From Girardia tigrina (taxonomy: Eukaryota): a DNA stretch of 50,373 nt. Positions 2,741 to 50,373 of the stretch are shown here, piece by piece. The stretch's first letter is position 1; each line of letters begins with the position of its first letter. The DNA lies in assembly GCA_001938485.1 (NCBI GenBank), contig MQRK01250777.1, positions 8,642 to 59,014 of the forward strand, read 5' to 3'. A program made the position numbers and the translations under genes. Below the pieces are notes generated by a model, which saw only the letters and a program-made list of their open reading frames with translations, was not told where the DNA came from and ran no database searches.

Positions 2741-3652
2741 TTTGTAAGATTACCTTTTTTCTTTGTGTATAATACCAAGTTAATTATTAATTCCTTCTTA
2801 TTATAGTGTTACAAATAAATCTTACGTTCTTAATCTCATAATATTACTTAATTATAGTGGCAATAAAACTCATTATAATAATAATCATATATTCCATGGC
2901 TTCTAACATTTACTCGTAATGTAAGGTTTTCGAAAAATGTTCGAAAAGAAAATTTAGAAAAAATGTTTCAAAATGAAAAGTATTGAATCCCATACCTTGA
3001 TGACTGATTGATGTTTTTCACATTTCGATTTCTCAGACAGAATTTTAATTATAAATTAAATGTAATAATTTAACCTTTCCCTTACCGTGCTGTGTAGTAG
3101 CTACACATTTAGAAACGAATGATTCAAAATCGATATAAATAGAAATATTCATTGACATTACTTAAGGTAGAAGTCAATATATGAAATTTATCTGCTAAAT
3201 TCATGATAAATATCGAGGAATACCTAAGATCTCGAAATTAAATTCATTGTATTAATAGAGATATTTAAGTTATTAGAAGCAATGTTTACACGTTATACAG
3301 TATGGTACATGAAGGGTGAAAAGTAATTGTGAAATACTTTTAATCTTTTTATATTCTAATATTTTAATCAATGTCAGATTTAGCTATATCCACTAAAGCT
3401 TATGGTCTTCATTTTAAATAAATAATAATCCTAAATAATATATTGCCTGAAATCGATCGATTATTATGATACAAATGATAATCGTTCAAGAACAATGAAA
3501 ATCGTTAATTTTATCGTTGTTAAGTGTACAAATTTACTTGTTGTTTGCAAGAGATTAAAAAGTAAATATCTAAATGGGTTCTACAGAAAATTTATTACTC
3601 AAAAAAGCCGAATTATCTTATTTTCATTTTTTAACTGTTTTTGGAAAATTAC

Positions 3653-3772
3653 TGTAACACGCGAAAAGTTTATTTTCAAAAACACTGTTTAATTGATAAT
3701 ATTTAAACAAAACATTTATCAAAAAACCATATATTAAATAATTCAAATAATTAAAATATCTAATATCCAACA
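3653..3772 (-). mobile_element. Solo LTR (120 bp) of the Gypsy family at 7195
   Basis: Reverse complement aligns to 7195-7313; TG...CA ends; exact 5-bp TSD ATTAC (3648-3652 and 3773-3777). Confidence 0.92.
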
Positions 3773-4299
3773 ATTACGTAGGCGGTATTTTTAAATTTAC
3801 TTCATTTTCAATTAATAAATTAATTAAGGTAACTCTCATACATTGATATTCATTTTTCAATCAGTCACAGTTACTCATTTACATGTGAGAAATAAAAATG
3901 TAACATCAATAAATGCATAATGAATAAATTTAGGAACTAAATATATCCCATTATCGCATATTATACATTGTGAAGATGTACGTACTAAATTAAAAAATAG
4001 ATCGATTTATAAGCAAATGTTTTTAAATGTGGACTCATTGCATGAACTAGATAAACATATTTGTGCGTTTATATTTATTTTACATTTATAATGTATACAT
4101 TTGTACATAAATGCATGTATCTGTTATGCAATTAAAAATGTAACGGAGGGTTTGGGTTCTTTCTTAGTTCAAGGCATTTATCAAGACGTAAATCCAGTCT
4201 CGGGTTAAATATTCTGATATTATAATTTTTCAGTTTGAATTTTAATAATGAAAATTGTAATTAACGATGAAAATGTTTAACAGAGAAGTTGAGTGTGAA

Positions 4300-5586: not shown

Positions 5587-6000
5587 GGGTGAATTTTTTG
5601 TTGATGTTGTGCATGTTGATTCGGATTGTGTCTCTCCTACCCAGATGGATGATTGATATTTTTCTTTGATTCCTACTAATTAAAAATAATTTAATTTAAT
5701 TTAAAGTAAAAAGATTTAAAATAATTTTCGAATGTAATATTTAATTTTTAATGTAATTTAAAAATTTTAATATATTAATTTAATATGTACTTTTTAAAAA
5801 ATGTTTAGATTTAATTTTAAGCAATTAGAATCTTTATAATTAATAATAAATATTTTTCATTTATTGTAATATTAGTATGAGTTTAGAAATATATTAATCA
5901 ACAAACATGTCGAATAGCGAAGGCGGTTTGAATAATTGTTGTCATGACAATTCTACTTGTGTTGTTAATAAATGTTTAAAAAATCATATTGATGTTGTTA
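5587..6000 (+). mobile_element. PLE 5' region copy (head repeat, AT-rich leader, ORF start MSNSEGGLNNCCHD)
   Basis: Highly similar over ~400 bp to 38925-39330; the head motif ttgtgtctctcctacccagatgg recurs across the window. Confidence 0.7.
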
Positions 6001-6321
6001 AAATACCTAAAACAAATTAATCTAGAACAAATTTACCTAAAAGCTATTAACATAAAATTAATTTATTTAAAGTAAATCCATTTGTTACAATGTTACAAAT
6101 ATAAAAAAACGTTATTTAAAAAACTAAATTTTATTGTCTCAGTGGACTTTCCATCATTTTCAGGCCCTATTAACAACAATTTTACTGCCTTAAATATTGA
6201 TGATTAAGCAATCATCGCGTATAATAATTAATTAAATATTTTCAACAAAGTGTAAGGTAGACTTGTTTGGACATTAACTGGTGGATTAAGTGACTCTTTC
6301 CAAATAATTATAAAAAATATT

Positions 6322-6525: not shown

Positions 6526-7328
6526 ACTTTATTAGGTTTTTAATTTGTGCAGTAATCTTATCATTAATTAATATTATTAGGAAATACCACTAGTAAAATT
6601 ATTACATTATTGAAAGCAATAATTATCACTTGCATTTGTATGAGCGGCTTCAACTATTGAAAATTCATTCATCGATTGACTTCTGTGTTTCCTTTCTTTC
6701 CCGATCGGCTAGCGATACTGTAATAAGTCAGATTATACAAATATTGAAAGAAAAAAGACTAATCCAAGTTCGACACGAAGCTTTACTTGTACTTCCTACA
6801 AGTAAAAGTTAAATTATTTTTACCAATAATTATTCAGAAACGATGAGAGTAGAAAAATTTCCTGCTTAAGATTAAAGTCCAAATGATGCTCATCGATCAA
6901 TTGATAGGCAACGCAGGTGCTCATAATGCCTGCAAAGAGGGCTGCATTAGCATTCACGAAACTCATTAACATTATAAGGAATATTTTAAATTGTTTGAAT
7001 GTGTAAATGTATTTATTCTGTATGTTGATTTAAGTATGTTGACTTTAGAATGGTGATTCTCCCACCAAGATGGAAATTGGTATTTTTTTTATTTAAATTT
7101 AAAGTGATTGACTATTCCAACATAATTAAAATAATCATTTTATAAGATAATATTTATTATTTATTTATTATTATTCGAATTGTTTTAACGACATTGTTGG
7201 ATATTAGATATTTTGATTATTTAAAATATTTAATATATGCTTTTTTGATAAATATTTTGTTTAAATATTATCAATTACAACAGTGTGTTGAAAATAAACT
7301 TTCGCGTGTTACAAGCTATCCTGGTATA

Positions 7329-8030
7329 ATGAATGATATGAAAATCGCTTTGGACTTTTTGGAAAAATTTGATGGAAGCGTTAGCTTCGAGGTCTGGCAG
7401 AAGAAATTTGAAATGGTCATGAAAATCCAGAAGATTACTGATCCAGCCCCGTATCTCCCTTTTTTACTATCGACGGTTGCACTGAACATCTACATGGAAT
7501 CGGACGAGAAGACGCAAAGCAGCTGCGATCGGTTCTTCAAGATACTAAACAATTCGTTCGGTCTAACTAGACGTTCTGCGTACAGTCAATTGATAAACTT
7601 ACAGTATCACGAGGGCGAGACTATCGATGAATATGCGTCTCAGGTGAAGATGCTATCATCAAAGGTCGACGATCTAACAAAGGTTGCCTTCATGGCTGGA
7701 CTGCCTTTCGAGTTGCAGATGGATTTGGAACGAACCGACGACCAACCCTTGACCGAAATGATAGAGTATAGCCGTAGGTATTTGGGGATTAAAAGGGGTT
7801 TATTACAGGGTTCATACGCAGTAATACAACAAAGAAGCAGGAAGATCCGGAGGTCAGGGAAAACTCGATAAACCCAGAGCAAATCTTCACAAAGGACCCT
7901 ATGTTTATCGTGAGAGAGACACCGAATCGGAGGAAAGGAAGCATCATAAGGGTTCTCAGTGGCAATCAAACAGACATACAATATGCTACAAATGTCAGTA
8001 ACCGGGTCATATAGCAAAATATTATCAGTC
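7329..8030 (+). pseudogene. gag: Gypsy gag (capsid plus degenerate CCHC knuckle)
   Basis: ATG 7329; EKFDGS..FEVW, LQYHEGETIDEY and FMAGLP are retrotransposon gag-like; knuckle CYKCQ*PGHIAKYY at 7984-8025 is in another frame (frameshift and stop). Confidence 0.85.
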
Positions 8031-8039
8031 GGGAAATGA

Positions 8040-8471
8040 ACAGGGGAGTTTGAAGGCGCCGGCTGTCTCCCTTCACAGTTGCAGGCGTTGCCGACGATGA
8101 TCGTCACCGTAAATGATAGGTCGGCCATAGTGTTGATTGATTCGGGTTGTCCGAAAACGGTTGTTTTAAAAGGGTTAGTTAGAGATTGTATGTTATTTTT
8201 TGACGGAGAAAGTATGGTTTTGGCGAATGGAAAGGGTGTTAGAGTGGGTTCGGGTGAAGTGCGGTTGACAATAGATGGCATGATCCTTAGGGTGGAATGT
8301 TTGGTCATGGAACATTTGCCGTATGGTCTAGGGGTCTTAATAGGTATGGATGTCATAGGTAAATTGGGCGGTGTGAGAATTAATAAGGGTGTTATTGAGT
8401 TCGGTGAAGAAGAAATTAAAGGGACAGATAGTAACTTGAGTTGTACTGCATCGGATGCGCCTCTTGTTAGC
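8040..8471 (+). pseudogene. Retropepsin aspartic protease (truncated pol)
   Basis: AIVLIDSGCPKTVV catalytic motif and VLIGMDVI motif; truncated at the inverted end. Confidence 0.88.
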
Positions 8472-10515
8472 ATCAAAAAAGCATTTATTAAATATTTTAA
8501 ATAATCAAAATATCTAATATCCAACAGACATTATGAATTTAAATTATTTGGTGATATTTAATGGAAATATTTCGACGATTAGTCGAGTTTATCAAAAAGT
8601 TTTTGGTGAATTCTTTGACAATGTGTTATTAAATTTTGAATTACTATATAAAAAATTACTTTGAAACGAAAATATTGAGGAATTTGCAAATAAAACGATT
8701 TTTTATACGAATTTATTTGTACAAGTTTTGAGACGAAATTTAAATGTGATTTTTTTCTGAAACGTGTTCTAATTTTTTTATTGAAATCTGAATTATATTT
8801 GATGTTTCAAAACTATTAATGATAATAAGTTTGAATAATATAAAAGGAGCTCAACACGAAATTGCTGAGAGCTATGACTCTGCCACCATCATCCAGTTTT
8901 CGGGGTAACCTGAGTGTCAAATGGAACAACATGTAACCGATGAACAGGTCTCATAAGGATCCCAACAAAACATTATTGAAAACAATATTCTAACAATGAT
9001 TTTTACGTTTTTGTTATTTAAATTATTTTAAATATATAATTTTCTTCTCATTAAATTCCATTCTTAAAAATTAATATTTCAAAAATAAATTTAATACTAA
9101 AAACTTAAATATTTTATTTTGTATTTTAAAAACGAACATTCATTGAATTCCCAAATAAAATTTGCGTTGACAAATTCTAACAGCAATAAATCACAAAATC
9201 AATCTTTTTTTGGGAATAATTTTATAAAAAAAATCTTCAAATTTGCTATTTGTTTTTATTAAGCGACAGAAAGAAGATGAATAAGTTGTCTGAAAAATAA
9301 ATTTTTTTTACAATTTTAACCAATCGAAAAAGAGAGAAATATTCTATATTATTACTGAATAATGTAAATGTATTAAATTCGTCAATGGATACAAACTGAC
9401 CCACCAGGGATTACTGATAGAGTTCAGTGGACCTAATCAGCCGCCCCCTCCTACAGAGGTAATCTGTTTCAGCACAATTTTAACCAAACTTATGACCGAA
9501 TTTCGTCCAATAAAATCTGTAGAAGCCGAAAAATCAGCCTCCCAGTCTTCCTCGATTCTGTAATTCTCCTATTTCTGTGTGCTTCGTCCCAATTATTGCT
9601 GTAATCTTAAACATGTCATATGTGGGTTTTCGTAGATAAAAAAAAGCGACACAGCAATTTGTATTCTGTGCTGACTACAAAAAACTGGTTAAATAAACAA
9701 CCGGATTATTTATCTCAATTTTTATTGAAGGAAAATAAGTGATTTTCCACAATCTTCTTTCGAAGAAACCAAAAAAAAAAACAAAAACTAAATTAACGAT
9801 TAAAAATTGGGATATTTTAGATTTTGAAGAACTAATTCTTAAGTGGAGAATAATAAGTGTAAAATAAAACATGAAAATAATTTTTCTATATTGTTTCAGG
9901 TAATTCTTTTATTTTATTATTAATTAATTAATTAATTTATTTATTTATTCAATTAGTCAATTGATTTTATTATATGTCATTCTATCATTCGATTCGATCG
10001 TATCAGCTCAATCGGTTTGATTTCGTTTTTGTTTCTAAAATTTATTTATTAAATTATAACTTAAAATTAATTTTTTTATTAAACATTGTTTTGATAATTG
10101 ATTTTTTTAAACATTTAATTTTTTTATTTAATAAATAAAATGGCATGGAAACAGAATTACTAGAATGTCCCATAATTATTTTCCGTTTTTAATGCATATT
10201 ATATGCAATATTAATATTGAAATAAAAAAATATAATTACATTATTAATTATCAAAATGATATTTATTTTCAAAAAAAGATTTACAAAAGAATTTTAAAAA
10301 AATAGCAAAAATCGATTCTTATCGTTTAAATTTACTTATATTAAAAACGAAAAAAACATATATGACACGCTAGTAAAATGTAAATTTATTCTTCTACCTT
10401 ATTGTCGACCCAAAACCTGATTATGATGAGAAGGTTTATGACACTAAACTTAGGGTACCAAAACTTGTTTAACAAGTAATTATTAAAAACAAGTCAAGCT
10501 TATTAAGAATGAGTA

Positions 10516-10715: not shown

Positions 10716-11684
10716 TAGGTATAAATAGGTTTATTTTTTGCAGATTCATGTTTCTTAACATTTTTTTGTTTATTTCTACTTTTCTGTTGGTCTATTCGTT
10801 CTTTTTCCATAGAGGAAAAAAACCTTTTTCTACGCATGTTTTTCGAACGAAGAATGAATCGGTGGTAGGAGACTCAGGAATATTTTTAACAATCCATTTA
10901 TTAAACATGACAATAATAAAAATAACAATAATAATAAATCTTGTAAAACTTGTTCAATATACTGATTCAACGTATTTTTCAAGTCATTAATTATTTTAAA
11001 ATCATTTATTTATTAGTCACGGTGGTCTAGGTTAAATAAGTAATCATGTTTAATTCAGTGACTCATTTGTAAAATTTCCTTCATCTTCAGATGAGGAAAG
11101 GATGTTGTCTTTTTACTGATGATTAAAAATAATTATTAATTATTGAAAAAAAGAAATTATATAATTTGTTTCCTTTCGAATATTTCCCGTGATGATTTAC
11201 ACAATTCTAATACAAAGATTCCTTCTACATTCTCGACTTCTTATTGCCATGTCCTTTAAATTGCCTTCATCATAACATCGTGATAGAGGGTCTTCCAAAA
11301 GTTATGATATTTGAATGGTGTAATCTCAACATATTTAAAACAGGATTAAGAACCAACAAAATTATTTGAAAAACAGTGTTCTAACTTATACAAACAATAA
11401 CATTTTCGTCGTGAAATATACAAAATAGAAGGCAAACTAAATAAATATTTTTATCCAAATATATCCGATACAATTTGAGCATTTGATTTCATAGATACAG
11501 TTCTGAATAAGTTGTTATTCATATTATCTCGGATATAAGTAGCAAGCATTTCCTGTTCTTTTTCTTTTCTTTTTTCTACATTAGTTGGATAAATTAGGAT
11601 CTTGAATTAATGATTTTACAATCTTTTCGAAATTCAAATAGTTTTGCTATAACAAGCACCTTTGGAATTTACCTTTTGCATGTA

Positions 11685-12949
11685 TTGGGTTGAGGAATAA
11701 GTTCCCGCCGTTTTTTGAAAAATTAAAATTTTATTTTTTAACAAAAAGTTACTACAAATTAATCACAAATATAATCTCCGCCATTGTTTACGACTTCTTC
11801 CCAACGTTCAACGAGTTTTTCAATGCCTCTTTGGTAGCAATCGCCCGGTCTTGACTCGAAGAATTCAGCCAACCAAACTTGCAGTTCTCCATCATTGTTG
11901 AACGAAACAGCACGCAAAGCGTTAGAAAGCGAACGGAAAAGATGAAAATCAGATGGAGCCAAGTCAGGTGAATACGGAGGGTGCGGTAACACTTCCCAAC
12001 CAAGCGTTTGAAAGGATTCTTTAGTCATTCTGGCAATATGAGGACGTGCATTGTCGTGTTGCAAAATAACGCCATGTTGTCGATCCGGATGTTTTTGTCT
12101 TATAGCGGCGTTGAGTCTATGCAGCTGTTGAACATAAAGTTCTGTATTCACTGTTTGGTTTTGAGGAAGCAATTCATAATGAATAAGCCCTTCCCAACCC
12201 CACCAAACGCATAGCATTGTCTTTCGTGGATGAAAATCCTGTTTTGCTCGCGGTGTCGATTGTTCTTCTCGGCTACGCCATTCTTTGCGCTGTTTCATGT
12301 TGACGTATAGGCAACATTTTTCATCAACTGTTAAAATTCGATAAAGAAATTGTTGCTTATGACTGTGAGTAGAGCGATGACGGGCAAGCAAACTCGCCGA
12401 AATTGTGGATCGCTGGTTTTTATTGTTTTCGGTCAAAAGATGTAGGACTCATGCTCCCATTTTTTGAACTTTTCCCATTGATTTCAGGGGGTTCACGACA
12501 GTTTTTTGATCACAATCAAATATGTTCCGCCAATTCTCGAGTGATTAGACGCGCGTCTTCATGCAAAAGTTTGTTCAAATGCTCTTCATCGAATTCCTTT
12601 GGTCGTCCTCAAAGAGGTGCATCCTTGAGGTCAAAATTGCCAATTTAATCAGCTATAGCGCCTTCTCCGTATACAGCACAAGGTTCTCGGGCAGCGTTTG
12701 CGGCTTAGGTGCCTCGATTATACGTAAACAATAGATGGTGTCGGAAATGCTCATTATTGTCGACTTGACACTCCATTTCAATGGTCTAAAAATCGACAAA
12801 AATTAATCTGAATAAAAAAACAAAATACACCATTTTTAGGGCAAAACAATAGCTTTCAAATAACATATAACATTACATCAAAAAAATTGATTTAAATATT
12901 AAATTGATTAAAAATTAAAAAAACGGCGGGGACTTATTCCTCAACATAA
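11685..12949 (-). mobile_element. Full-length mariner (DD34D) element, inactive
   Basis: ~30-bp TIRs (ttgggttgaggaataagttcccgccgtttttt) with TA TSD; 1265 bp. Confidence 0.95.
11759..12776 (-). pseudogene. mariner transposase (frameshifted)
   Basis: Start MECQVDNNEHFRHHLL; TVDEK, HDNARPH and PPYSPDLAPSDFHLF motifs; stops and frameshifts in the N-terminal half. Confidence 0.92.
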
Positions 12950-13099
12950 TAGATCCGTTAATCTGAAAACAAGTCCGTTTCACTCACTTCCTCTAGCGTT
13001 TATTTAATGTTTGAATTTAAAGATAAGTAATTTATCCTTCTTTTCGTTGTTCACAGTCTTTTCACAAATTTAAATAACCATACTTAATACTTATTTATT

Positions 13100-15960: not shown

Positions 15961-17299
15961 CTATTATATTTTCAAAGGAAATAAAATTATTTTAATATTT
16001 AATGTATTTTATTAAACAAAACTTCTTCTTTGAACATCCTTTAAGTATTAAAATTAAATTATAAAATATTTCTTTTAGTCTCAAAAAACTGATATACTTA
16101 GCTTTTGATAATCTTAATTTTTGACATTTTTGGCAAAGGGTCTCCTTGGATAACCTAAGCAAAAGTTAAAACAAATATAGTAAAATATTATTTATCTAAA
16201 GACATCTTATAATCACTTAAATTTACTTTATTTTTTGCATTATATGAATATAATTTACCAAAAAATATAATTGAACTAATATTATTATTTTACACAAAAT
16301 TTTAAGGGGGAATAGAACTCATAATGATTATTGATGTTTTCAAAGTGAGCTGAACACTTATATTTTATTCATAAAGAATTTTGTTGCCATCAATGACCTT
16401 CTTAACTTTTCTTGCGTCAAAGGAACTAAGTTCTTTATTTGTATCATTTTTAATTTAAATTTGAAGTCCTTCTTCAAAATGGTACGAACGCTGGGATAAA
16501 AGTTTCTCCTTCAAATCATTAAAAATTGTAATGCTGTCTGTTAGTTGTGGTGGGCACATCACTCGGGTGGTAATAAAACTCAGTCATCGAATAGAAATTT
16601 GCCAAGACTATCACAAATTAAGATTATCAAAAGCTAAATATTTCAAGTGGTTTTTCACTGTTTAAATTTTCGCCCTACTTGCCAGTATTTAAACAAAATC
16701 TTATTTTTTATCTAATATACATTTCACGCAAAATTATTTCATAAACATTGTTTTGTAAATTTTTATCGATCTTAAACTGGAAAAAAATGATAATATTATT
16801 ATTGAATTTTAATTTCGTTCCACAAAAATTATTCTTACTTATTTTATAACTTTGATTAATAATTACACATGATCTTAAATTTCCGAATGTACAAAAAAAT
16901 TAATAATTCAAATAATCTGTATATTCAAACATTTTCCAAGTGGCTCTTGAGTATCTGACACTGATTCTTGATATATTTTCAGATGATAGATCATCTGCAA
17001 ACTATTGTAAATTCTAAACTCATCCTCATCATCAATAATATCTATGACTTCCTAAAACTCTAATTGGTTTGAAAGACTTGGAATGCTTAGGTGAATTTTT
17101 GAATGTGGTTTATCTTGGATACTGATTGATTTTCATGACGATGGGAAGGAAAATCTTTTGCAATATTTTTTGGGAAAATTCTGTTAAACGAATTTGGTTT
17201 TTGTATATAATAGTTCAGATTTACTTTTTCAGTTTTCTTACTGTAAAATTCAGTAAATGACACACGTAAATGTATCGGAAAATGGGTGTAAGTTTAAAA

Positions 17300-24500: not shown

Positions 24501-27500
24501 ATATGTTCCTAGTTAGAGTCATTCGACTGCCTTGGTAGATGTTAATAAACATTTGGAAGGATAAAAAAGATTTAAGCTAACAGATATTTAATTATAAAGC
24601 TAGTACGATAGTTAAAACATTATTTTGTAATTATTTTATTAGTGTTGTTAGGTACGCTATTAACACATTGAATGCTGAGTACGAGATATCTCGTACTTCA
24701 ATATTCATTAGTTAGACGCTAAGTACGAGATATCTCGTACTCAGCATTCAATGTGTTAAATGCTAAAAAGGCAACAATGTAAACTTTTTTTCCCACGCGT
24801 AGCGCGCGTAGCAGACGTTCGGTGCATGATGTCAACAGCAGTCAATGTGTTAATATTAGGTTGGGCGAATAATAATGGCGGTTTTTAAGCTTTATACTTT
24901 GTTTATCTACTTTGATATGTATATAAGTTTAAATGCATTAGTGTTAGATATTATTTGAAATCTAATGCCTAGCTGTATATTCCTATAGCCATATTGTTAC
25001 CTGTGATGAGAAATGGATCCTGTATGATAACCGACGTCGATCTGCACAGTGGTTGGACAAAGATGAAGTACCGAAACACTTTCCAAAAACAAAACTAACA
25101 CCTCGTAAGGTTATGTTGACAGTTTGGTGGTGTGATGCTGGAATCATTCACTATAGTTTCTTGAATCCAGGTGAAACAATCACAGCGGAGAGGTACTGTC
25201 ATGAAATTGATGAAATGCATAAAAAATTGAAAACCNNNNNNNNNNNNNNNNNNNNNNNNNNNNNNNNNNNNNNNNNNNNNNNNNNAACCCTTTGTCCGGG
25301 ATTGGTCAATCGAAAAAGTACCATCCTTCTTCATGATAACGCTAGACCTCATATTTCAAAAGTGACTCTTCAAAAGCTTAATGAGTTGGGCTATGAAACC
25401 CTGCCTCATCCACCATATTCACCAGACCTCTCGCAAATGGACTTCTACTTTTTCAGGCATTTGTACAACTTCCTACGTGAAAAAAATTTCAAAAACCAAA
25501 ATGATGCTCAAAATGCCTTCCAAGAATTTGTCGCTTCGAGAACCGATGCATTTTATGCTGATGGAATNNNNNAACTTGTTTCTCGTTGGCAAAAATGTAT
25601 TGATGCCAACGGTTCATACTTTGATTAATAAACTTTTGTTTCTGTGAATTTGTACGTCTTTGAAGTTTGTGTCCCAAAACCGCCATTATTTTTCGACCAA
25701 CCAAAGATATTTTCTTCAGACATTAAAAAATTAAGAAATTCAAAAATATTTATTATCTAACAATAATAAGGTTTTTTAAACAAATTTCGGAGATTTTTGT
25801 GATTTTTAATTTAACCGTTTTTTATTAATAAATATATGATAAAATATTGATAATCAAAAAATTGAAACCTGGAATCTTATTTTAACGTCTTATTTTAAAA
25901 TCTAATGTCTAGATTTTATTTTACATAAATAAATATACGATGTGATAATGAAATATCGATCATAAGAAAGTAAAATCTTTAACATCAAAATCTAATTTTA
26001 AAATCTTACAAGTGTCGAAATAAATATCGAATTATATGAGAATATGGAATAATTTTCCGTTTTAAACCGTTTTCAAAAGGTTTATTAAGGCAAGTTCCGG
26101 TAATTTATTACATTTACACGTATAAAGAGAATAGAATTATGTAATTTATTATAATCTCATTTACCAGTAATTTAATTGATGTGTAATGGCTTAGGGTCCA
26201 ACCGGAGAAATGGGACATAATGGAACTAATGGATGGCCGGTAATTACTTTTATTCAGTCCCTTATATGATAAGATTTCAGGGCTTTCAAGGATATAGGGG
26301 TCCAATGGGATTTAAAGGATTGATGGGCTGCGATGGAGCCATAGTTAGTGATTATATTTAATTATTATTAAACTTTATTATTAAATAATGAAAAAAAGTA
26401 TTATATTTAAATATTATTGAGAAAAATATTTTTGACTAAAAAATATTATGATTTATTTTTTTTAGGGTGAAACTGGTGATTCTGGCTTAAATGGTACCAA
26501 AGGAGCAGACGGACTTCAAGGTGATGAAGGAGACGTAGGCGACAGGGGTCCAGACAGTAGTTTAGTTAATTCGACCAAGGGAGACCAAGTTAGTATCAAA
26601 GACATTTGTTGTTATAATTATTTTTTCAAGATTATTTAATTGCTTTAGAAAAGATAAAATTTTAAACCGTAATTTAAATGGGAATGAATCCTTAATCAAT
26701 TTAATCACAATTTATGTGCTGTAAATAAATGGGAAAATGATAATTTTATAAATGTTCCTTTTTATTGACAAACGGATGACATTTATTTCTCATTGGAAAT
26801 TTCTTTTAATTTTTAAACACAGATTTCTGGAATTAAAAATTATTTATATTTTATAATAATTACAATATTACAATAATGTGTCGATAATTAAAATTTATAT
26901 TATAAAGTTACTAAATTATATAAATAATCTGTGAAATATATGCAAGAACTGGCAAGTTTTTTCTTATTAAGATAAAATTAAATTGCTCATTATATATAAA
27001 AATAGACTGACCATTAATAGATCTAAACAATTTTTCCAAAAAAAAGTTTCCTTGGTTTCACAAAATCATACGTAAATTTATTAGGCCGCCAGTTTATTTT
27101 GTTTGAAATTAGTTTGAAATTTGAAGAACTAAAGTAAAATTTTATTGATAATTTACCAATACAAATATTTGTCATTCATCAAAATATGCACTCATATTAT
27201 CGACACTTTGGTAATTTGAGCGGCAACTTGTTAAGTCCATTTGAATACAAATTTGGTGGATGAGAATCTATAAATTTTCAAAGAGCATTTTTACAGATAC
27301 TTTGGAATCGAATTCTTTTCCTATCAAAAAGTTTTTGAAATTAAGTCGAAATTGTAGTCAGTTTGGGCTAGGCCTGGTCAGTATGGAAGATGATGCATAA
27401 GTTCAAACTCAAATCACTGTAGTTTTGTCACGATTTCAAGTGCAGTACGTAGTTTTGCATTGGCAAGGAAATGCGGCTGTTGTTCTTTGTGATTCCGCAT

Positions 27501-33500: not shown

Positions 33501-35785
33501 TGACTTCAATAAATTATTCTAAATTAGTTTTAATATTTAGAATTTAATACAAAAATATAATCAATTACTGAACTGAAACCATCTATTTTAGTCATTTGTG
33601 TCAACATTACATTATTGTTTTCCTTCCTTCTTGTAATTTTTAATTTTAAAATAAAATAAAATTTTAACAATACAAAAATTAAATATTTTTAAAAAGAATT
33701 CTGAAAAATATAATATTAATTTTTAAGTTGAACGCTCCTTTTTGCCTCTTTTAACAATTTCTGAATAATCAAAAATTCTTTATTTAATTATCTCTACAGT
33801 AGAGAGACTCTACTCAACAGAATATGTATATTACTTTATATTATTTAAATAAAATATTATAATTTTATACATCTTTTAGGGAAGAAAAGGTGAAAAGGGT
33901 TCTTATGGAATTCTCGGAGAGAAAGGAGAAATCGGATACATTAATAGAACTTCTAACTACACTAATGATGGTGAAGTTGGAGATAAAGGTGTTAAAGGTA
34001 GACCTGGCCCTCGAGGTGATCAAGGTGAACAAGGAATTGTTGGAACAGTTGGGGAAATTGGTAAAAATGGAACTAAAGTAAATAATACTAAAGCAATTTT
34101 ACTGGATTTAAAATAACTAAAAGGGTGAAATGGGTGCTAATGGAACAGTTGGAGTAGTCGGTCAGAAAGGTGAAAAGGGTGAAATTGGTGAACCGGGATT
34201 AAGTTCAAACGAAAGTATTAAGGGATATCGAGGAGATCAAGGTGTAAATGGGTCTAAAGGAAATCAGGGCCTAAAAGGCGAAGAAGGTTTCAAAGAAGAT
34301 TGTAATACCACAGCAAATTCATTGGGCAATCAAATTCAAGGTAATTTTGAAAATTAAATCTAGGTTTTTTTTATTTGTAAGAAAAATTTACACATTGAAT
34401 ATAATTTTATACACGCAATTTTGATAATCATTTCGACATTCCACAGTTGAGACTTCAGTCATTGATATCAAAAAGAATAGATGAAAAATTTTTATCGAAT
34501 TTTCTAAAACAAATAGACATATTTAAAACTTTTAAAATATTTACAAGGAATTTCGTAGGTTACAATTAAAACAAATATTAATTATTTAAAAATAATAATT
34601 TGATTTATTTGTTAAAAAAAATTTAAAATAAAATTAATCGATTCATTCAAAATTTTAAAATGATTTCAAATTAAATTAAAAATACATTTAAACATTAAGT
34701 CTTGATTTAAATCAAATTAGTTTCAGATATTAAGAATTAAAATATTAATCAGCCATTAGGGTAAGAGAGTCGCAATCCCAAATCAACACACAACATTGAA
34801 ACACATCAAACATTCAAATATTCCTCACATGGTTATTTGGTTTATACCAGAAATAAATCTGAAATAATATTTTTCTGTGCTAATTTACATGTTTAAAAGT
34901 TTGACTTTTTCATTTGTTTTTTTATTGTTGTAATATGTTTTATTACACAGTTCAAAGCAAGGGACAAAAAGGTGAAAAGGGAATGATTGGTGAAGGCGGT
35001 CCTCAAGGTCCAAACGGAATAAAAGGGGAAAAAGGATTTGTTGGCACGGATGGTCTGATGGGAATTAAAGGGGCTAATGGTACGGTTGGAATGAAAGGAG
35101 AAAGTGGAGTTCCTGGACAAAATGGTAATTTTATTGAATTTTCGATCGAATGGGCTTCATTTTTTACGATCGGCCATAAACTATATCATTTCAGAAGCAA
35201 TCTTGAAACTGAACTAATTGAAATTTTAAATGTCATAAAAATGAAATGGTAATTCTCTCATCATAAGGAGCAAAACACAATATTATCTCATTTTCATTTT
35301 ATTTTCGATTTATACAGTGACTTTATGAATGTTTTTTACCGAAAAATTATGATCCCATAGCATTGATGCTTGACTATCCAATACTATCATTTCTTTGACC
35401 ATCCTTCTATATGATTTAAGATTGGTAATATTAACCTTTTGACTTATAGAAACGTTTTCTAGTTTAATTTTTAAGTCACTTCTTCTAAATATAAGTCAAA
35501 AGAGAGTATAAAACCTGATATAGTTTTCTGAAATCCACTTTTGCCGTTGTAATTCGATTAATATGTATACTGTCTTACTAAAAGTCCCCGACCACCTATG
35601 CGTTCACTGTTATGTAAGATTATGAGAATTTTAAACGAATGAATATATTCACAAAACGTATAATGATATTAATGTATTTTTAATGATTTAAGATTGGTAA
35701 TATTAATCTTTTGACTCATAGAAACGTTTTGTAGTTTAATTTTTAAGTTACTTCTTCTAAATATAAGTCAAAAGAGAGTATAAAA

Positions 35786-38800: not shown

Positions 38801-41800
38801 CCATTCAAAAATATTCCTCACGACGTAAAATTAGTTGTCGATCGAGATTTAAATTAAAACTTTATTTCCTTTAAAACTTAAAATAGATTTTCAAAATATT
38901 AAATTTCGGTACTGCGAGGAATGTTTTGAATTGTTTGTTGATATTGTGCATGTTGTATGTTGATTCGAATTGTGTCTCTCCTACCCACATGGATGATTGG
39001 TATTTTTTTTGATTCGTACTAATTGAAAATAATTTTATTTAATTTTGAAGTAAAAAGATTTAAAATAATTTTCGAATGTAATATTTAATTTTTAATGTAA
39101 TTTAAATTTTAATATGTACTTCTTAAAAAAATGTTTAGATTTAATTTTAACCAATTAGAATCTTTATAATTAATAATAAATATTTTTCATTTATTTTAAA
39201 ATTAGTATGAATTTAGACAATATATTTATCAAGAAAATTGTCGAATAGCGAAGGCGGTTTGAATAATTGTTGTCATGACAATTCTGATTGTGATGTTAAT
39301 AAATGTTTAAAAAATCATATTGATGTTGTTAATAAATATTTAAATATTTAATAAATATTAAATATTTTAGTTCCAATTAGAATGAAATGTTAATTTTTTC
39401 AATTATTTAATATATATTTTTTTATGAAGATATGTGTGTTTAATATTTAAAATTCAAAGAGAAAAAGCATCTAGATAATTAAAAATCAGACTTTATTCGG
39501 TGTCCTAGAAATAAAATAGTAATGAATAAATTTTTGTGATAAATCTCTTGTTTTTATCATTTTAGTGGACGTTAATACAGGTTTCATAAATGAACATAAG
39601 AAAAATGGGTTTATTAGTGTTCATTTTGAGTAAGTTTGAATTTATATGTTGATTGGAATTTTATGAAAATATAAAATATTTATTTAAATAATAAATAATA
39701 TGTAGTAATGTTTTACAAAAAAATAAGTTTACAATTATTTATATAAATTAGGTACAATTGGAAATATTGGTGAGACTGGTGAGGACGGTGAAGTTGGTAA
39801 ACCTGGAGACGTTGGCCAGAGAGGAGACAACGGAACCATGGGAATGAAAGGAAAAAAAGGTTATAAAAATATTTCTCTGGTTTTAAAGCAAAAGTGAATT
39901 TAAGGTGAAATTGGGGAAGAAGGCAGTGTTGGAAATGACACAATAGGTGAAAAAGGATCAAATGGAACAAAAGGATTCCTTGGCCCAAGAGGACCAAAAG
40001 GTCTTAAAGGAGAAAGAGGAGAGCAAGGTGTTAATGGCACAAAAGGTATGTAACTTAGAACTTTGTAATTATATTATTGTACTTAATAATTTAAGTAAAG
40101 TATGTTTAATCTTCGCCCAGTCTTGTAAAGTCTGAAAGACTTAAAATTATAATTTTTATTAAGCTTGTTTAAAAGAGTATTATGAGTAATAATTTTTTTA
40201 ATATTATTCATCTATAGAAATACAGCTTCCATTAAATTGTAACGTTAATAGTTCAAGGACCAAATGTTTCTGCAGGGTGTTTTCAAAATTTAGACGTACA
40301 TCACTTATTAAACTTTTATTTGAGTAATACGCAATGTATGTTCTTCAAGAAACATAGAGCTCATTAATTTAAAGTGTAATCGTTTTATTAATTTTAACTG
40401 AAACAATAATTCCTCGAAAATGTTAACTGTTTCGATTTCCAGATAAAAATGAAGATATCAAATGAAGATAATTTTAAAAGAAAAGTTTACAAAAATTTAT
40501 TATTAATCTAAAAATAAAATTATTTAAACAAATTATTATTTATTTTATTAAACAAACCTTGATTGTAGCTCAAGTTAAACATCACATTTGAACATACTAG
40601 AATGGCAAAGCTTAAAGTTTATTTCTCTTTACACGTTTCAAAGTGACTTAGGTTTATGGAAAGACTTACGTATTCGTTTTGTAAAACTGTTAAAGATGTT
40701 GTTTTAAAGTTCTTAATTTAATTTTATGATTTTATTTATAGGTCTAACTGGAATGATTGGAAATAACGGGACAAAGGGTGAAAGAGGTGACACTGGAGAA
40801 AAAGGAGATCGAGGAATACCTAACCCGAATGCTACCGCTGGTGACAGGGGAGAACAAGGTGCAAGAGGCATGAAAGGAATCCAAGGATCTATAGGAGAGA
40901 ATGGAACAGATGGAAATTGTACTGATAGAGGTTTAATGGGTGAAAGAGGTGATATGGGCCCACAAGGTGAAAATGGAACAAAAGGAGACATGGGAATAAA
41001 GGGAGAAATGGGAGAAAACGGTACCATAGGTGACACAGGGCAGAGTGGTACGTTTAAAGATTAAGAATTTCATAAATGAAAATTTTAAATTTCCTTTTAG
41101 GTGAAAATGGAACAGTTGGATTAATGGGAGAAACTGGTGATGCCGGACAAAATGGTTCCATTGGTTTGAAAGGACCTAGAGGAGAAAAAGGGGAAAATGG
41201 CACTCAAGGGGATATTGGAGATAGAGGAATTGCAGGAGAAAAAGGTAAATATAAATATGTTTTTAAAATAATAATTATTATTTAGGAAATAATGGTTCAA
41301 TTGGTTCGGTTGGACTTAACGGAACAAGGGGACAGAAAGGAGATTCCACTCCAGGAATTTCCGGAGATATAGGAGATCAAGGTGTTAAAGGACCACAGGG
41401 AGAAAAAGGTATTGCAGGCATGCCGGCTAAAGATGGACGGCGTGGAGATACAGGTCAATCATTCATTGGAGTTAAAGGAGACATTGGAAGCCCTGGAGAA
41501 AATGGTACAATTGGAGATAGTGGTGAACAAGGGGAAAACGGAACACGTGGCTCTCAAGGAGAGCAAGGAATTAACGGAACAATTGGAGATACGGTATTAT
41601 ATTAGTTTAAATTATCTTAAAGAAACTGTTAGGAACTTTAGAGTTATTCGATTTTGAACTCCTGGTGTCTTTATAATTTTCCATCAGATTTTGACATTTG
41701 ATTCTTCAGTGTGTACAAAAGAGTTATGACTTTTTGACTTTTTTAAAAAAAATAATTTTCTCTGTCATAAATCGATGAACTTTTGTTAAAAAAAACATTG

Positions 41801-44800
41801 AAAACATGTTCGATTCCTCTCCTTTGTAAAAAAGGGTCACTCGCAATTAAAATTACAATTCGTCATTTATTTAATCTTGTTCCTGCTACTTCTAATACGT
41901 GTGTCTTTACTACAAATCATTTAAAACTTAGATTAGAAGTGTTTCGAAAAGAAACAGTGGGATACTCTACAGACCAAGAAACCAGTAAAAAAATGATCCA
42001 TCCCTCTAAAAGACAAAAACTTTCTAATCATCAACTCATCATCTTATTATCCTGGTTTTAGTGATTCTGACTCTGAGGCTGACGACAGTGAATATCAAAG
42101 CGATGAAGAAGAAGAAGAGGAAACTACTCCTACACCAAGCTGAAAACATCATAAAAGCAAAATTGCAGTCAAACTGATGACCTTCACAAGATTATCAACA
42201 TGCAAAGCTGCTAAAATTTGCAAGCAAATGGTTCATGAAGGTATTGACATCATAACTTCTAGTCAATCAGCTATTTACAAGTCAACAATCAAAGAGTCAA
42301 TCAAACTGAAAGAAGAAATGATTGAAAAGTTGCATTTGCAAAGGCAGTCCTAACACTTTGATGTCAAGCACATCGGTGGAATCAATTATCAAGTGGTCAT
42401 CCTTATAAATTAAAGAAGATGAATCAAATTGGATGTACTTGGTTTGGTAGATGACAGGTCAAAAACTATTGCTCAAGGAATTTCTAAAGTCCACGATTAA
42501 TTTAACCTATGGAATTCAAAACAGATGATTGTTACAGATACCACCAGCGTTAATATTGGAAAAAAGAATGGTGTTGTTGTATGATTGCAACGAATATTCA
42601 CAGAAATAAGCATCTACAAACCTCAGTTTATCAGATGTCAACACCATGTATAAGATAGAATCCTCCATTTGGTGATGGATGAAAAACTTGGAAGTAAAAC
42701 AAAATCACTAAACATCGAATATCCATTTGTATCTCAACTGTTGAAGGATCACAAACAAATAAAAATACAGTTTGATAATGGAAAAGAAGTTATTCTTGAA
42801 ACATCAGACTGAAGAGATAATTTGAAATTTTTATTTCATCTCACTCGAATGTTCCGATCTTTTGAGGAAAAGGCACATTTTCCATTGTTCAGGTTTAAGA
42901 ACATACCCAACATCGACAATCCGAGGTGGAATTCCAGAGCTATACTAGTGATCCTGGCCTTCATTGTAATTCCTTTATCAAGGTCAGTTCCGCATAGAGT
43001 ATGTTGATTTATATGGTATGGCTGGGTAAACCATTTGTTTACAGACTAACTGTACAACGAAAATTACTTTAATAACTTGCTGAAGCACAGAATCCATACA
43101 AAAAGGCTTTAAGCTCTTTGAAAAATCACTGGAAGCGAGAGCCATACATACTACAGATACCCAGAAGTAATTAATAGCGGAGTGCGCAATCAAATTGTTC
43201 GGAATTTGAATCAAGATATATATTATACAGAGCACGACAATTAAGTCTCAAAAATTAAGTCTCGGAAAATTAAATGGTTTCTTTAAAAGATAAAATTTAG
43301 AAAAAACTAAAAATCTAATAAATTACTTAATCGTCGGAGACTTTTCATTTTTTTCTAAAATTTACTGGAGTTTTTCATTTTTTTCAAATTTATTATTTAA
43401 AGAAACCATTTAATTTTCGAGACTTAATTGTCGTGCCCCATATATTATTTATTATTATTATTTATATTTAAATTCAAAATTTGAATCTTCATCTCTTCCC
43501 AAGACAATTCAAAGGAATCATTTATTCGAACTTGAATGACAATCTCTGAAAATATTTATCGTATTCTGTTTTGGAATGACAATCACTGTTTTATTTATTG
43601 CCTGCTTGCTGTTATATATATATATACCTATATAAAATAATATGATAATAAATTAAATTAAATTTAAAGAAAAAAATAATTAATAATTCAAATTTTTAAG
43701 AGTCAAATTCAGTTTTTTTTTAAATAAATTATTTCTTTGTAAATCGAGTCATGTGACTCATATTGGTTACCCCCGTTTTTTTTTTGAGTTGGTGGGTATT
43801 TAGTATGCCAGTTGTGTGCTAGTTGAAGAGAGAAATCCGACTTGTGTGAAGTGGCAAGAGGAAATTTATTCATCATGCAAAAGTTACACCTTCGATTCCT
43901 TCTATGCAACAAGCATGTGAGGAATATTTGAATGTTTGATGTTTTGTGTTTGAATGTGTATGTTGATTTGGGATTGTGTCTCTCCTACCCAGATGGATGA
44001 TTAATATTTTAATTCTTATTATCTAAAAATATGTAATGTTTAAATTTATTTTTAATTTCAAATAATTTTAAATAAGTTAATTAATTTTTATAATATTTAA
44101 TAAATAAATCAAATTAATATTTTTTAAATAATTAATAATCATTTTAATTATTATCCAATAAGTTTTGACAGATTGTCTTAAGGACAATCAAAATTGTTGT
44201 TTAAATAAAAATATAAAAATTCAAATTGGTGTTCTTAATAAAGCAATAGCAAGGTCTGACTCATAGTTGGATTGGAAATTTGTTGTATTACATGACTATG
44301 ACATTCTAAATACATTTGGATACACAGTAGTACTTATGTCAAAATCGATTTTTCAATGGCGGGATGAACTTTTTAGAAAATATATGTAAATAATAGTTCG
44401 ATACGTAGTTTTTAGGTAAAAGTTCATCAAAATGAAAGGAAAAAAAACGGAAAGTAAATTGAAAGTAATCGAAAATGGATTCAAATTCGAAGATGGATGT
44501 TCACAAACAAAAAAAAGGGAATAAGGAATATATTTGAAAAAATCAGATATTTTATTAGATATGATAAAAAAAGAACTTCAAATAGATAAAAGTAATAAAT
44601 CGTACATCCCTCTTCCAGAGTATCTTATTTATGCATATAAAAGATTAATAAATCAAAGTAATATAAATGATATTAGAGATCCCGAAAAAGTAGTTTTGGC
44701 TCTCTTTTCTTCAGATCCAGATAAGATAGTCAGTTGTGATAGTTTACCAAAAGATAAGAAGAATTTAATAATCTTCGATTATATGGCAAATTTGAAAGAT

Positions 44801-47800
44801 CAAAAAATAATGAAATCTTATTTTACTAGAGGTCGTCATAATAATTGCAATACAATATATATTTCTCAAACATTTTATGATCTTGATAAACATTCAATAA
44901 GAAACAATTCTAATGGATTCATATTTTTTGAACTGGGAAAACGAGATGTTTTAGGTGTTTTAGTCTTAAGCATTTATTTAATTTCCTTCAGAATTATAAT
45001 CGATTAATATATAATGTTTTCATGTTCAAGGTTTTTATCAATAGAAAGAAGAAACAAAACTATATTTATGTTTATACTTGCAGAACTATTCAAGGGTAGA
45101 ACTGATCAAATCGATAAGATATCAGTAAATGTCATCTAAATAGAAAATGACCCGCAGAAGCTAAGGTATTTTTCTTTGAAAGTATAGGATCATGGGGTTG
45201 GAAAACGTCATAATCTTAACGTACAATTTAAGTGAGATTTTGTGTTGACTAATTAACAATACAGGGGATTAGTTTATGGAGTCATTATCATTTTTTTACG
45301 TTTGCTTAATTTAAAATATTACTGGAAAAAATAACTCAAATTGAAGGAGAAGGATTGTATCATAAGGCATAAAGCAACCGTTGAATAAAAAAAATCAAAC
45401 AATTTTTACGAATAGAAGTAAAGATATAAAATTTCCCTTAGAGAGCTGCAACCTTGAACGTGTTAACTAGAATGTGATTCTTAGAATTATTAATGAAAGA
45501 TGTGGAAGAACTTCGATGTACTTTTGTGATTTTCAGGTTGTGTATTTTTCTTAAAAAGAAGAATCGCACTGCATTCATAATCCTTCAATTACGGGATCAA
45601 TTTCAAATGAGAACATAAATAATAAAATATATCATGTGCTAAACATCACGTGATATATAATAATAGAAAATATATACAACATGGGGTAGTCTAATATCAT
45701 GCTTTATTAGAAAAATGCAATCTTTCAGTTTTCTTCCATTCATCCTTTCTTCATAGTAAATGAATTGATTCTTTTTATTAGCAACGAAATTTATCCATTA
45801 ATAAAAATATTTATAGACAATATATATTTCGACGGATCAACCGTATCTTCAGGTCAAAATATGTTCAGTAAAAAATCAATTACACATTTATCACTTTATT
45901 CTGATATTGTTTATGACATGCATTTGAGAGACTGTCCGTTATCTCTGTAAACGAATTCAAGAACAAGGTCGAAAAGAGAGTAAGAGTAATAATGCACAAC
46001 ATATGAAAAATGTAAATGTGATGTTCATATTGAAAATTTCAAAATTCTATGTAAGCAATTTGATAGTTATTGGGAGTGTCGTTTGAAGCTTTGTTAATTA
46101 GGTCACATTGCGCTAAATTCAATGCTCAATCGGTAGTCTCAATCAACCTATTGAGATTTTTTGTTTAGAGTGATTTTATACAATGGATTACATATTCATT
46201 ATTTTTGCATTTACAGGTGAATTAATTTATCAAGTGACCTGAAGATGACGGTTGATCCATCGAAATATATTGTCTATAAATATATTTTAATGGATGAATT
46301 TTGTTGTTAACAAAAAGTTCTCATCTGGATTGAAAATTATTTTAAGATCACTTATTTGTCTTAACTAAAATCAATCTTTACCAATTTTTTAATCTTATTC
46401 TTGGATTCACTTACAGAGATTATGAGATGTTTCTCAAATGTACTTGAAATCTCATTCCTTGAATATCTGATATACGATATCGATCACAGCTATAAGGCGT
46501 AGTAGAGTTACTTCAAAATATACTACCAATCTTTATTGACTTTAAGATAAAGTTTGAATTTAAAGGATTATTTGCATATTTAAAAATAGAATTTTTAAAA
46601 TTTAATCATTAAAATATTTTATTAATTTCTTACGAACTTTGTAAATTTATCATATTATTTTTTTAAATGATAGGGAGAAAAAGGCCGTCGAGGAGAAAGT
46701 GGATGGAGTGGTAAAAGAGGTTTGCCAGGACAAAATGGGACAGAGGGAAGTCGTGGCAAAACTGGTATCAGAGGAGAAAAAGGGGAAATAGGGTCACAAG
46801 GGGAAAAGGGAGAAATGCAAAATGCAACAAAAGGAGAAAGGGGACAAAGAGGACATAAAGGAATACGAGGAGATAAACCAGAAAATACAACTGAGGGAGA
46901 AAAAGGGGATTATGGTAATAAATGACATTTAAATATCGTTTTTTGAAAATGTTTATAATAAACGTTTCAAGAAACTTTCAAAAAGATATTTAGGAAAATA
47001 AATAAAATAAGTAAATTGATTTTGATAAATTGTTATCAGTTATTTTTTATAAGTTTTAAAAATACAATACCATCATTAATCACCTTCTAATGTGGTTGAT
47101 GTAATATGATGTGGATATTTACGTAAATTCCCGTAAGTTAGAGTCTTTGAAAAGTACAAAATGTTTCATATCTTACAAGTATCTTATAAGTATCTTTCAT
47201 ATTTTATAAGTACAAGTATAAAGATTATCTTCAGATGCTACTGAAATGGAATTTTAAAAGTACAGTTTTTCATCTTAACCATTTGAATTTAGTTTTAAAA
47301 TTCTATTTCAAATGTGATATTTAAATCAATGTCATGGGTATAATGCTGCACACATTAGAGAGATTTCTTGTCATATATGTAAACGGTGTCTGGAGCACAG
47401 GCGATTGGCTAATTGTAGCAGTATTGGTGGACATATGGAAGTTTGTAGATCCGATGTAGCGATAAACAATTTAAAATACAGTGCAGTAATTTGAAATATT
47501 ATTGAGAGGTTAGCCTGTGAGACATTATTGAATGAATCATTTAATCCATCTGTAGTGGGCTCGATCACCCTTCTCGTGTGAGGGAAACAAAAAAGGTAAA
47601 GAACCCTGCTACAAAATTTATTAAAATGAAAATATTTGTTTGCGATTGAGATTCCTCGTTGTTCTGCAGTTTTTGACTTCGACATTTTCGGTAATTCTGT
47701 TTATTCAAACAAAAAAACATTTTTTTATTTGAATTTTATTTTCGTTGATTTATTTTTTTTTTGATTTAAATTTCTTTGTCAACTAATTTAAGCATTTCTG

Positions 47801-50202: not shown

Positions 50203-50373
50203 GTAACCATGGCAACGGTATAGGTTATCGCGGTTACCATGGCAACGGTCGCGATTACCATAGCAACGGTCGCGGTTACCATGGCAACGGTCGCGATTAC
50301 CATAGCAACGGTCGCGGTTACCATGGCAACGGTCGCGGTTACCATGGCAACGGTCGCGATCACCTTAGTTACG
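50203..50373. repeat. 21-bp tandem repeat composed of X-box-like palindromes
   Basis: Unit GTTACCATGGCAACGGTCGCG alternating with variant ATTACCATAGCAACGGTCGCG; runs to the window end. Confidence 0.92.

Follow-up and report, generated by a model that had tools for sequence, protein, structure and literature searches.

An LTR retrotransposon copy with inverted U3 ends and an intact 5-bp target-site duplication in Girardia tigrina, probably the product of a template switch before integration

How can a copy of a retrotransposon family with direct long terminal repeats (LTRs) come to lie in a genome between inverted ends, with its target-site duplication intact? The question is raised by a 1332-bp element with TG...CA ends at 7195-8526 of a stretch of Girardia tigrina DNA (assembly GCA_001938485.1, contig MQRK01250777.1, positions 8,642 to 59,014 of the forward strand), which was analysed over its full length of 50,373 nucleotides and is called the window below. 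The element opens with a complete left LTR of 119 bp, itself TG...CA (7195-7313, + strand), and closes with an inverted copy of LTR nt 1-55, the U3 end (8472-8526, - strand). This arm is identical to the reverse complement of 7195-7249 at 54 of 55 positions (BLASTN E 1.8e-21). The 5-mer GACAT stands on the left (7190-7194) and again on the right (8527-8531), neither copy being assigned a strand, and the chance of such a repeated 5-mer is 0.8-0.9e-3. An initial annotation of the window had described the 119-bp LTR, the 54/55 arm and the flanking GACAT, and the coordinates and BLASTN bear out all three; the inverted-end structure at 7190-8531 is confirmed as real and well bounded. We hold it to be probable that one template switch, guided by microhomology, took place before integration and gave a cDNA with two U3 ends, that the integrase of the family inserted this cDNA with its usual 5-bp duplication, and that the copy is a dead one-off.

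A scan of the window admitted TG...CA units 80-8000 bp long, flanked by a repeat of 4-6 bp and with no more than 3 mismatches in 15-nt arms. It returned 15 units, and only the one at 7195-8526 had 0 arm mismatches; the other 14 had 2-3 and lay in AT-rich sequence. A solo LTR of the same family (3653-3772, - strand, 120 bp) is 92.7% identical to the left LTR over the full length and has its own 5-bp duplication, ATTAC (chance 1.7-2.1e-3), the whole unit spanning 3648-3777. The target duplication is thus 5 bp at 2 of 2 insertions of the family in the window, and neither GACAT nor ATTAC reaches 6 bp. The solo LTR with its 5-bp duplication indicates that the parent family has direct LTRs and an integrase that duplicates 5 bp. 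The 7195-8526 copy does not have two direct LTRs around an internal region; the solo LTR implies them for the family.

The evidence on how the inverted arm was joined comes from the junction with pol, where the initial annotation had seen an abrupt join. This description did not hold. P0007, a relative of the protease region, is identical to the window at 47 of 55 residues before the arm and then continues into the linker between protease and reverse transcriptase (RT); its tail was recognized as this linker by phmmer (best E 2.7e-7 among 153 fetched proteins) and by a motif aligned with full-length relatives. The window and P0007 agree without interruption over 15 residues, up to and including the third codon of the arm, after which 0 of 7 agree. 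The codons of the last three shared residues, I-K-K, are the nine bases with which the inverted arm begins. Because I-K-K is common to P0007 and to the start of the arm, pol and the inverted LTR would overlap in a microhomology of some 8-9 nt, or perhaps 12; a fourth residue matches P0007 if the A-run slips by one base, and the overlap would then reach 8484. This putative junction microhomology (8472-8480, no strand assigned), in which the pol codons for I-K-K coincide with the inverted arm, is proposed at the protein level from one protein, P0007. I-K-K is encoded at 1 of 111 positions of the inverted LTR, namely the junction itself, and the chance of three matching codons is 2-7e-4 (74 of 100588 window 9-mers; 3 of 14208 random joins). 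Extending P0007 beyond the arm by gapped tblastn gave a match that was rejected as chance, since all three frames of the right flank contain stops.

We also asked where the arm was copied from. Four sites within LTR nt 1-55 separate the left LTR from the solo LTR, and the arm agrees with the left LTR at 4 of 4. At LTR position 21 both arms differ also from P0001, a gag relative that reads through the same LTR. The four diagnostic sites and position 21 point to the lineage of the element itself as the source of the arm; the solo LTR (3653-3772), which lies 3.4 kb away and differs from the arm at all 4 sites, was ruled out as its origin. The arm has one private change, at LTR position 42. Dating from the arm mismatch is uninformative (1/55, 95% interval 0.05-9.7%).

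Between the left LTR and the arm lie the remains of gag and protease genes. In Pfam, the matches to Retrotrans_gag (E 0.024) and to gag-asp_proteas (E 3.7e-5) fell short of the gathering cut-off, and close relatives were found at E 8e-96 for gag and 1e-43 for the protease. A gag-like fold class was confirmed by Atlas searches. Gag had three relatives, the closest of them P0001 (91%), and none of greater length was present among 405 candidates. P0001 comprises a whole gag of 293 aa with a CCHC knuckle, and its 10 members lie on 4 contigs. Since the two residues that precede its LTR differ from the window flank, it stems from another site. By tblastn against P0001, gag occupies 7329-8052 (+ strand) and is broken by a frameshift near 7828, with about four codons lost, and by a nonsense codon (7999-8001) inside the zinc knuckle. 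It has no stop codon where the gag of its relatives ends. A slippery-type heptamer (8031-8037, + strand) lies in the gag/pro overlap and may be the gag/pro frameshift site; a stop codon in the protease frame follows at 8037-8039. The aspartic protease region of pol (8040-8480, + strand; DSG at 8139-8147), delimited by Pfam and the alignment of relatives, is 83-90% identical to P0004, P0005, P0007 and P0154 and ends, in the alignment with full-length relatives, at the start of the protease-RT linker. The window copy has 8-12 private replacements in 168 residues of gag and 7 in 98 of the protease (together 15-19 of 266; about 2.5-3% at the DNA level). The frameshift, the nonsense codon, the missing gag stop and the protease-frame stop mark the copy as a pseudogene. 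That the element carries gag and protease is therefore correct, as Pfam and close relatives show for both, with the amendment that gag is broken and not intact.

The template switch would most likely have taken place during reverse transcription in the particle, using the inverted match between pol and the LTR. In one route, plus-strand DNA primed at the polypurine tract (LTR nt 1) would stall after 55 nt and anneal to plus-sense pol; the annealed 55-nt strand would then prime a minus strand back through pro, gag and U5-R, and strong-stop DNA would complete the duplex. In a mirror route, a plus strand at the end of pro would copy back on the start of U3. The sequence fits both routes alike, since each gives U3-R-U5-gag-pro-inverted U3(1-55). 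The arm would stop at LTR nt 1 because the template or the primer ends there. An integrase supplied in trans would accept the two U3 ends, both of them attachment sites, and make a normal 5-bp duplication. The product is missing a second R, the polypurine tract that precedes a 3' LTR, RT and integrase; judging from this anatomy, it could not retrotranspose again, and the copy is decaying.

This order of events is favored by the arm ending exactly at LTR nt 1, where it abuts GACAT, and by GACAT having the same length, 5 bp, as the duplication at the solo LTR. A single switch explains the junction and the terminus together. The integrase of Ty1 integrates two U3 ends in a concerted reaction in vitro and favors U3 over U5, as described in PMC8487063, and assays of the Rous sarcoma virus integrase reported in PMC3579926 were also run on U3-only donors. 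The initial annotation had offered an aberrant reverse-transcription product, integrated through two U3 ends, as one explanation; the present results support it, and the junction microhomology adds a signature of its own. Other observations weigh against it. The amino acids fix only 6 of the 9 junction bases, the evidence is one protein, and the parent DNA is deduced from it. An 8-bp duplex is weak (-6.7 kcal/mol). According to PMC11724301, microhomology is just as typical of host repair. Finally, the arms differ at 1 of 55 positions, where 2.7-3.5 differences are expected from the coding decay; the direction is that of an arm younger than the decay, and the deviation is not significant (P 0.14-0.25).

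The main rival is a rearrangement after a normal full-length insertion at GACAT, which we regard as unlikely. During host replication or repair, a switch at the pol/LTR microhomology would have copied the LTR backwards from nt 55 to nt 1 and then rejoined the right flank at ACA, the 3 nt common to both LTR ends, with deletion of RT, integrase and the 3' LTR; in a variant, an inversion was followed by a deletion. Such a rearrangement leaves the same junction signature and takes its duplication from the original insertion, and templated inversions mediated by microhomology are documented at DNA breaks in PMC11724301. The 54/55 identity of the arms is slightly high for the coding decay, which leans non-significantly either towards this rearrangement or towards a donor that was already defective. 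However, two switches over kilobase distances are needed, the second falling exactly on the boundary over a homology of just 3 nt (TGT is all that the LTR termini have in common), and the foldback insertions described in PMC11724301 are local and mostly 5-34 bp. The age signal that might speak for a later origin of the arm does not reach significance.

A second alternative, that the element belongs to a non-autonomous but mobile family bounded by terminal inverted repeats (TIRs) of 55 bp, transposed at the DNA level by a Ginger-like transposase or the integrase of the parent, is in our judgment very improbable. Some of the anatomy would suit it. According to PMC2836005, Ginger1 and Ginger2/Tdd elements have TGTNR termini (TGTTG here), inverted repeats of similar length (55 bp lies inside the 40-270 bp range of Ginger1 TIRs) and target duplications, which measure 5 bp, as here, in TDD-4/5. 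Well-kept arms around decayed genes would also fit a mobile family. On the other hand, the unit has neither integrase nor transposase, and LTR integrases normally integrate only (PMC2836005). The junction occurs once in the window. None of the 4 proteins that the chimeric open reading frame (ORF) retrieved, and none of the 154 fetched, had the chimeric C-terminus, a weak test, as only one close relative spans the junction and the host is thinly sampled; the absence of the exact chimeric ORF from the protein collection searched is likewise a weak test. With 154 fetched proteins including integrases, no Ginger-type integrase-like DDE transposase was found in the element or elsewhere in the window. 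In the account of PMC2836005, the duplications of Ginger1 and Ginger2 are mostly 4 bp, CCGG/CCGT or RTATAY, and 5 bp only in TDD-4/5, whereas GACAT is found here. Moreover, the window unit carries gag-pro, its repeats belong to a living LTR and it is a single copy in the window. The element at 7195-8526 is not a Ginger element. The suggestion of a TIR-type family or an intermediate towards Ginger, made in the initial annotation, consequently finds no support in the single junction, the 0 of 4 chimeric C-termini, the lack of integrase and transposase and the duplication of 5 bp in place of 4 bp.

There is a slight chance that the structure is an amplification chimera or a misassembly. Whole-genome amplification typically makes inverted joins at short microhomologies, and the window has 55 N in two gaps (25236-25285 and 25568-25572). 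However, a copied-back strand would continue into the inverted left flank and not into GACAT and new sequence; exit through another LTR copy gives a matching 5-mer in about 1 of 1000 cases; an overlap of 8-12 nt is too short for an assembler to join; and the arm has one private difference. Least credible of all are two opposite insertions fused by a deletion, copying of the arm from the solo LTR, and autointegration: the family did insert twice within 3.4 kb in opposite orientations, LTRs in opposite orientation have been proposed as a source of Ginger1 TIRs (PMC2836005) and inversion circles from autointegration are known (PMC7197481), but a shared duplication would arise by chance at about 1e-3, the diagnostic sites speak against the solo LTR, and in autointegration it is an LTR terminus that becomes linked to internal sequence; in this element the join is at LTR position 55, and the terminus is turned towards the host DNA.

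The element was compared with other retroelements of unusual structure. The autointegration inversion circles described in PMC7197481 likewise contain an inverted LTR segment in one element, but they are not integrated; guppy PrERV-1, according to PMC5210030, has an inverted LTR segment that is a whole inverted 5' LTR of unclear origin. Unlike both, the present element has a partial U3 copy as its terminus, beside an intact duplication and with microhomology at the join. TR-GAG and other non-autonomous LTR retrotransposons with gag and protease only, as presented in PMC13570524, are also short and devoid of RT and integrase; they are families with two direct LTRs, which allow retrotransposition in trans, in contrast to the single LTR, inverted fragment and broken gag of the window copy. 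DIRS elements are retroelements with inverted terminal repeats as well; they use a tyrosine recombinase, whereas the family studied here has direct LTRs, a protease and target duplications, and its relatives carry an rve integrase. Troyka/Kuafuorterviruses were ruled out, as they have CG...CG ends and a 3-bp duplication against TG...CA and 5 bp here; their RT motif IADD/VADD/LADD is absent, Y[I/V/M]DD being found in the RT of the 19 fetched relatives longer than 300 aa, a comparison that concerns the relatives only. No description of an integrated U3/U3 or inverted-LTR copy with an intact duplication was found in the literature covered, from which most older retrovirus papers are missing, so that this negative is no proof of novelty. 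Aberrant products of retroviral strand transfer are described in older papers.

Bao et al. (PMC2836005) call it unclear by which events an LTR retrotransposon could become a DNA transposon, and they offer a chance second insertion in the opposite orientation. The present locus points to a simpler route, in which one template switch makes both inverted ends and the integrase accepts them in the germ line. The single dead copy, which has no integrase, is an illustration of this route and not the intermediate itself. A bolder version makes the short inverted match that U3 has in the internal region a built-in hot spot for one-step conversion from LTR to TIR ends, with the 1.3-kb unit as founder of a family moved as DNA; we give it very little credence. 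If it were true, the same switch downstream of integrase would place an integrase gene between TGT...ACA inverted repeats, the missing route from a Gypsy-like element to Ginger1. A genome-wide count now becomes possible, covering the frequency of U3/U3 copies with intact duplications and any that keep an integrase. Pipelines that require direct LTRs would probably miss such copies or call them miniature inverted-repeat transposable elements (MITEs).

The nature of the parent family was examined through the 192 relatives of the protease, of which 150 were listed; 19 of these were scanned for domains and, with P0001, P0003 and P0007, gave 22 scanned proteins. Protease, RT, RNase H-like and integrase domains occurred in that order in 5 of the 22. 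DUF7047 was present in 13 of the 22 and lay between RT and RNase H where both were seen. The matches of the relatives' RT to RVT_1 were mostly under the cut-off. P0098 matched solved structures weakly, with retroviral and not Ty3 structures among the 60 matches listed. This domain content indicates that the parent is an LTR retrotransposon with a DDE integrase, and the relatives that bear DUF7047 (in the range P0031-P0140) appear to be a divergent LTR lineage. The window copy itself retains features of LTR retrotransposons, namely the TG...CA LTR, the 5-bp duplication, gag and the aspartic protease. With LTR retrotransposons of Ty3/Gypsy domain order (the DUF7047 lineage), it and its relatives share these TG...CA LTRs, the 5-bp duplication, a gag with a CCHC knuckle (P0001) and the DSG protease; in contrast, it lacks a 3' direct LTR, RT, RNase H and integrase, and its right end is inverted U3. 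The Gypsy label given initially is tentative: it corresponds to the domain order in distant relatives (26-36% identity), an order also present in BEL elements and retroviruses.

Some smaller features of the element complete its anatomy. An AATAAA was found by motif scan at LTR position 99 of the left LTR (7293-7298, + strand). The leader at 7314-7328 (+ strand), across which P0001 encodes the same residues, contains a presumed primer-binding site, with TGG after an 8-nt spacer and not adjacent to the LTR. No tRNA gene for comparison with the primer site was present in the window; by its resemblance, the site may be complementary to the 5' part of a tRNA and not to the 3' end. The first 20 LTR bases had 2 exact matches among prokaryotic genomes, both on contigs of bacterial metagenome-assembled genomes; neither extended beyond 20 nt or encoded a related protein, and both were set aside as chance. 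BLAST searches with each flank, made to find a paralogous empty site, showed that the left flank resembled a dispersed repeat (61-68%), which the right flank did not continue. This repeat family has members at 5590-6011, 38927-39344, 34564-34837 and 43908-44149, which are 69-88% identical and lie in both orientations, and the left flank of the element, at about 6980-7190, is itself a degraded member.

The remainder of the window contains further repeats and one long gene. A mariner-type DNA transposon occupies 11680-12954, with inverted ends of about 80-83% identity and a Transposase_1 ORF at 11759-12448 (- strand, E 2e-24). A second mariner-type transposase fragment (24966-25628, E 3e-26) contains both assembly gaps, and a perfect 39-bp hairpin stands just upstream of it (24660-24759). 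MITE-like inverted-repeat units with arms of 48-128 bp were found at 238-1267, 16090-16645, 43253-43429 and 45771-46317. A weak match to the packaging ATPase Pox_A32 (44525-45007, E 0.0013, under the cut-off) is possibly a remnant of a Polinton/Maverick element. Many short Gly-X-Y exons on the + strand between 18605 and 50055 belong to a long collagen gene, with abundant N-G-T sites and Cys-bearing interruptions; no such exons were found upstream of 18605. The collagen exons and the mariners mark the host as an animal, one with AT-rich DNA. The window closes with a 21-bp tandem repeat (50207-50373), the copies of which are 90-100% alike.

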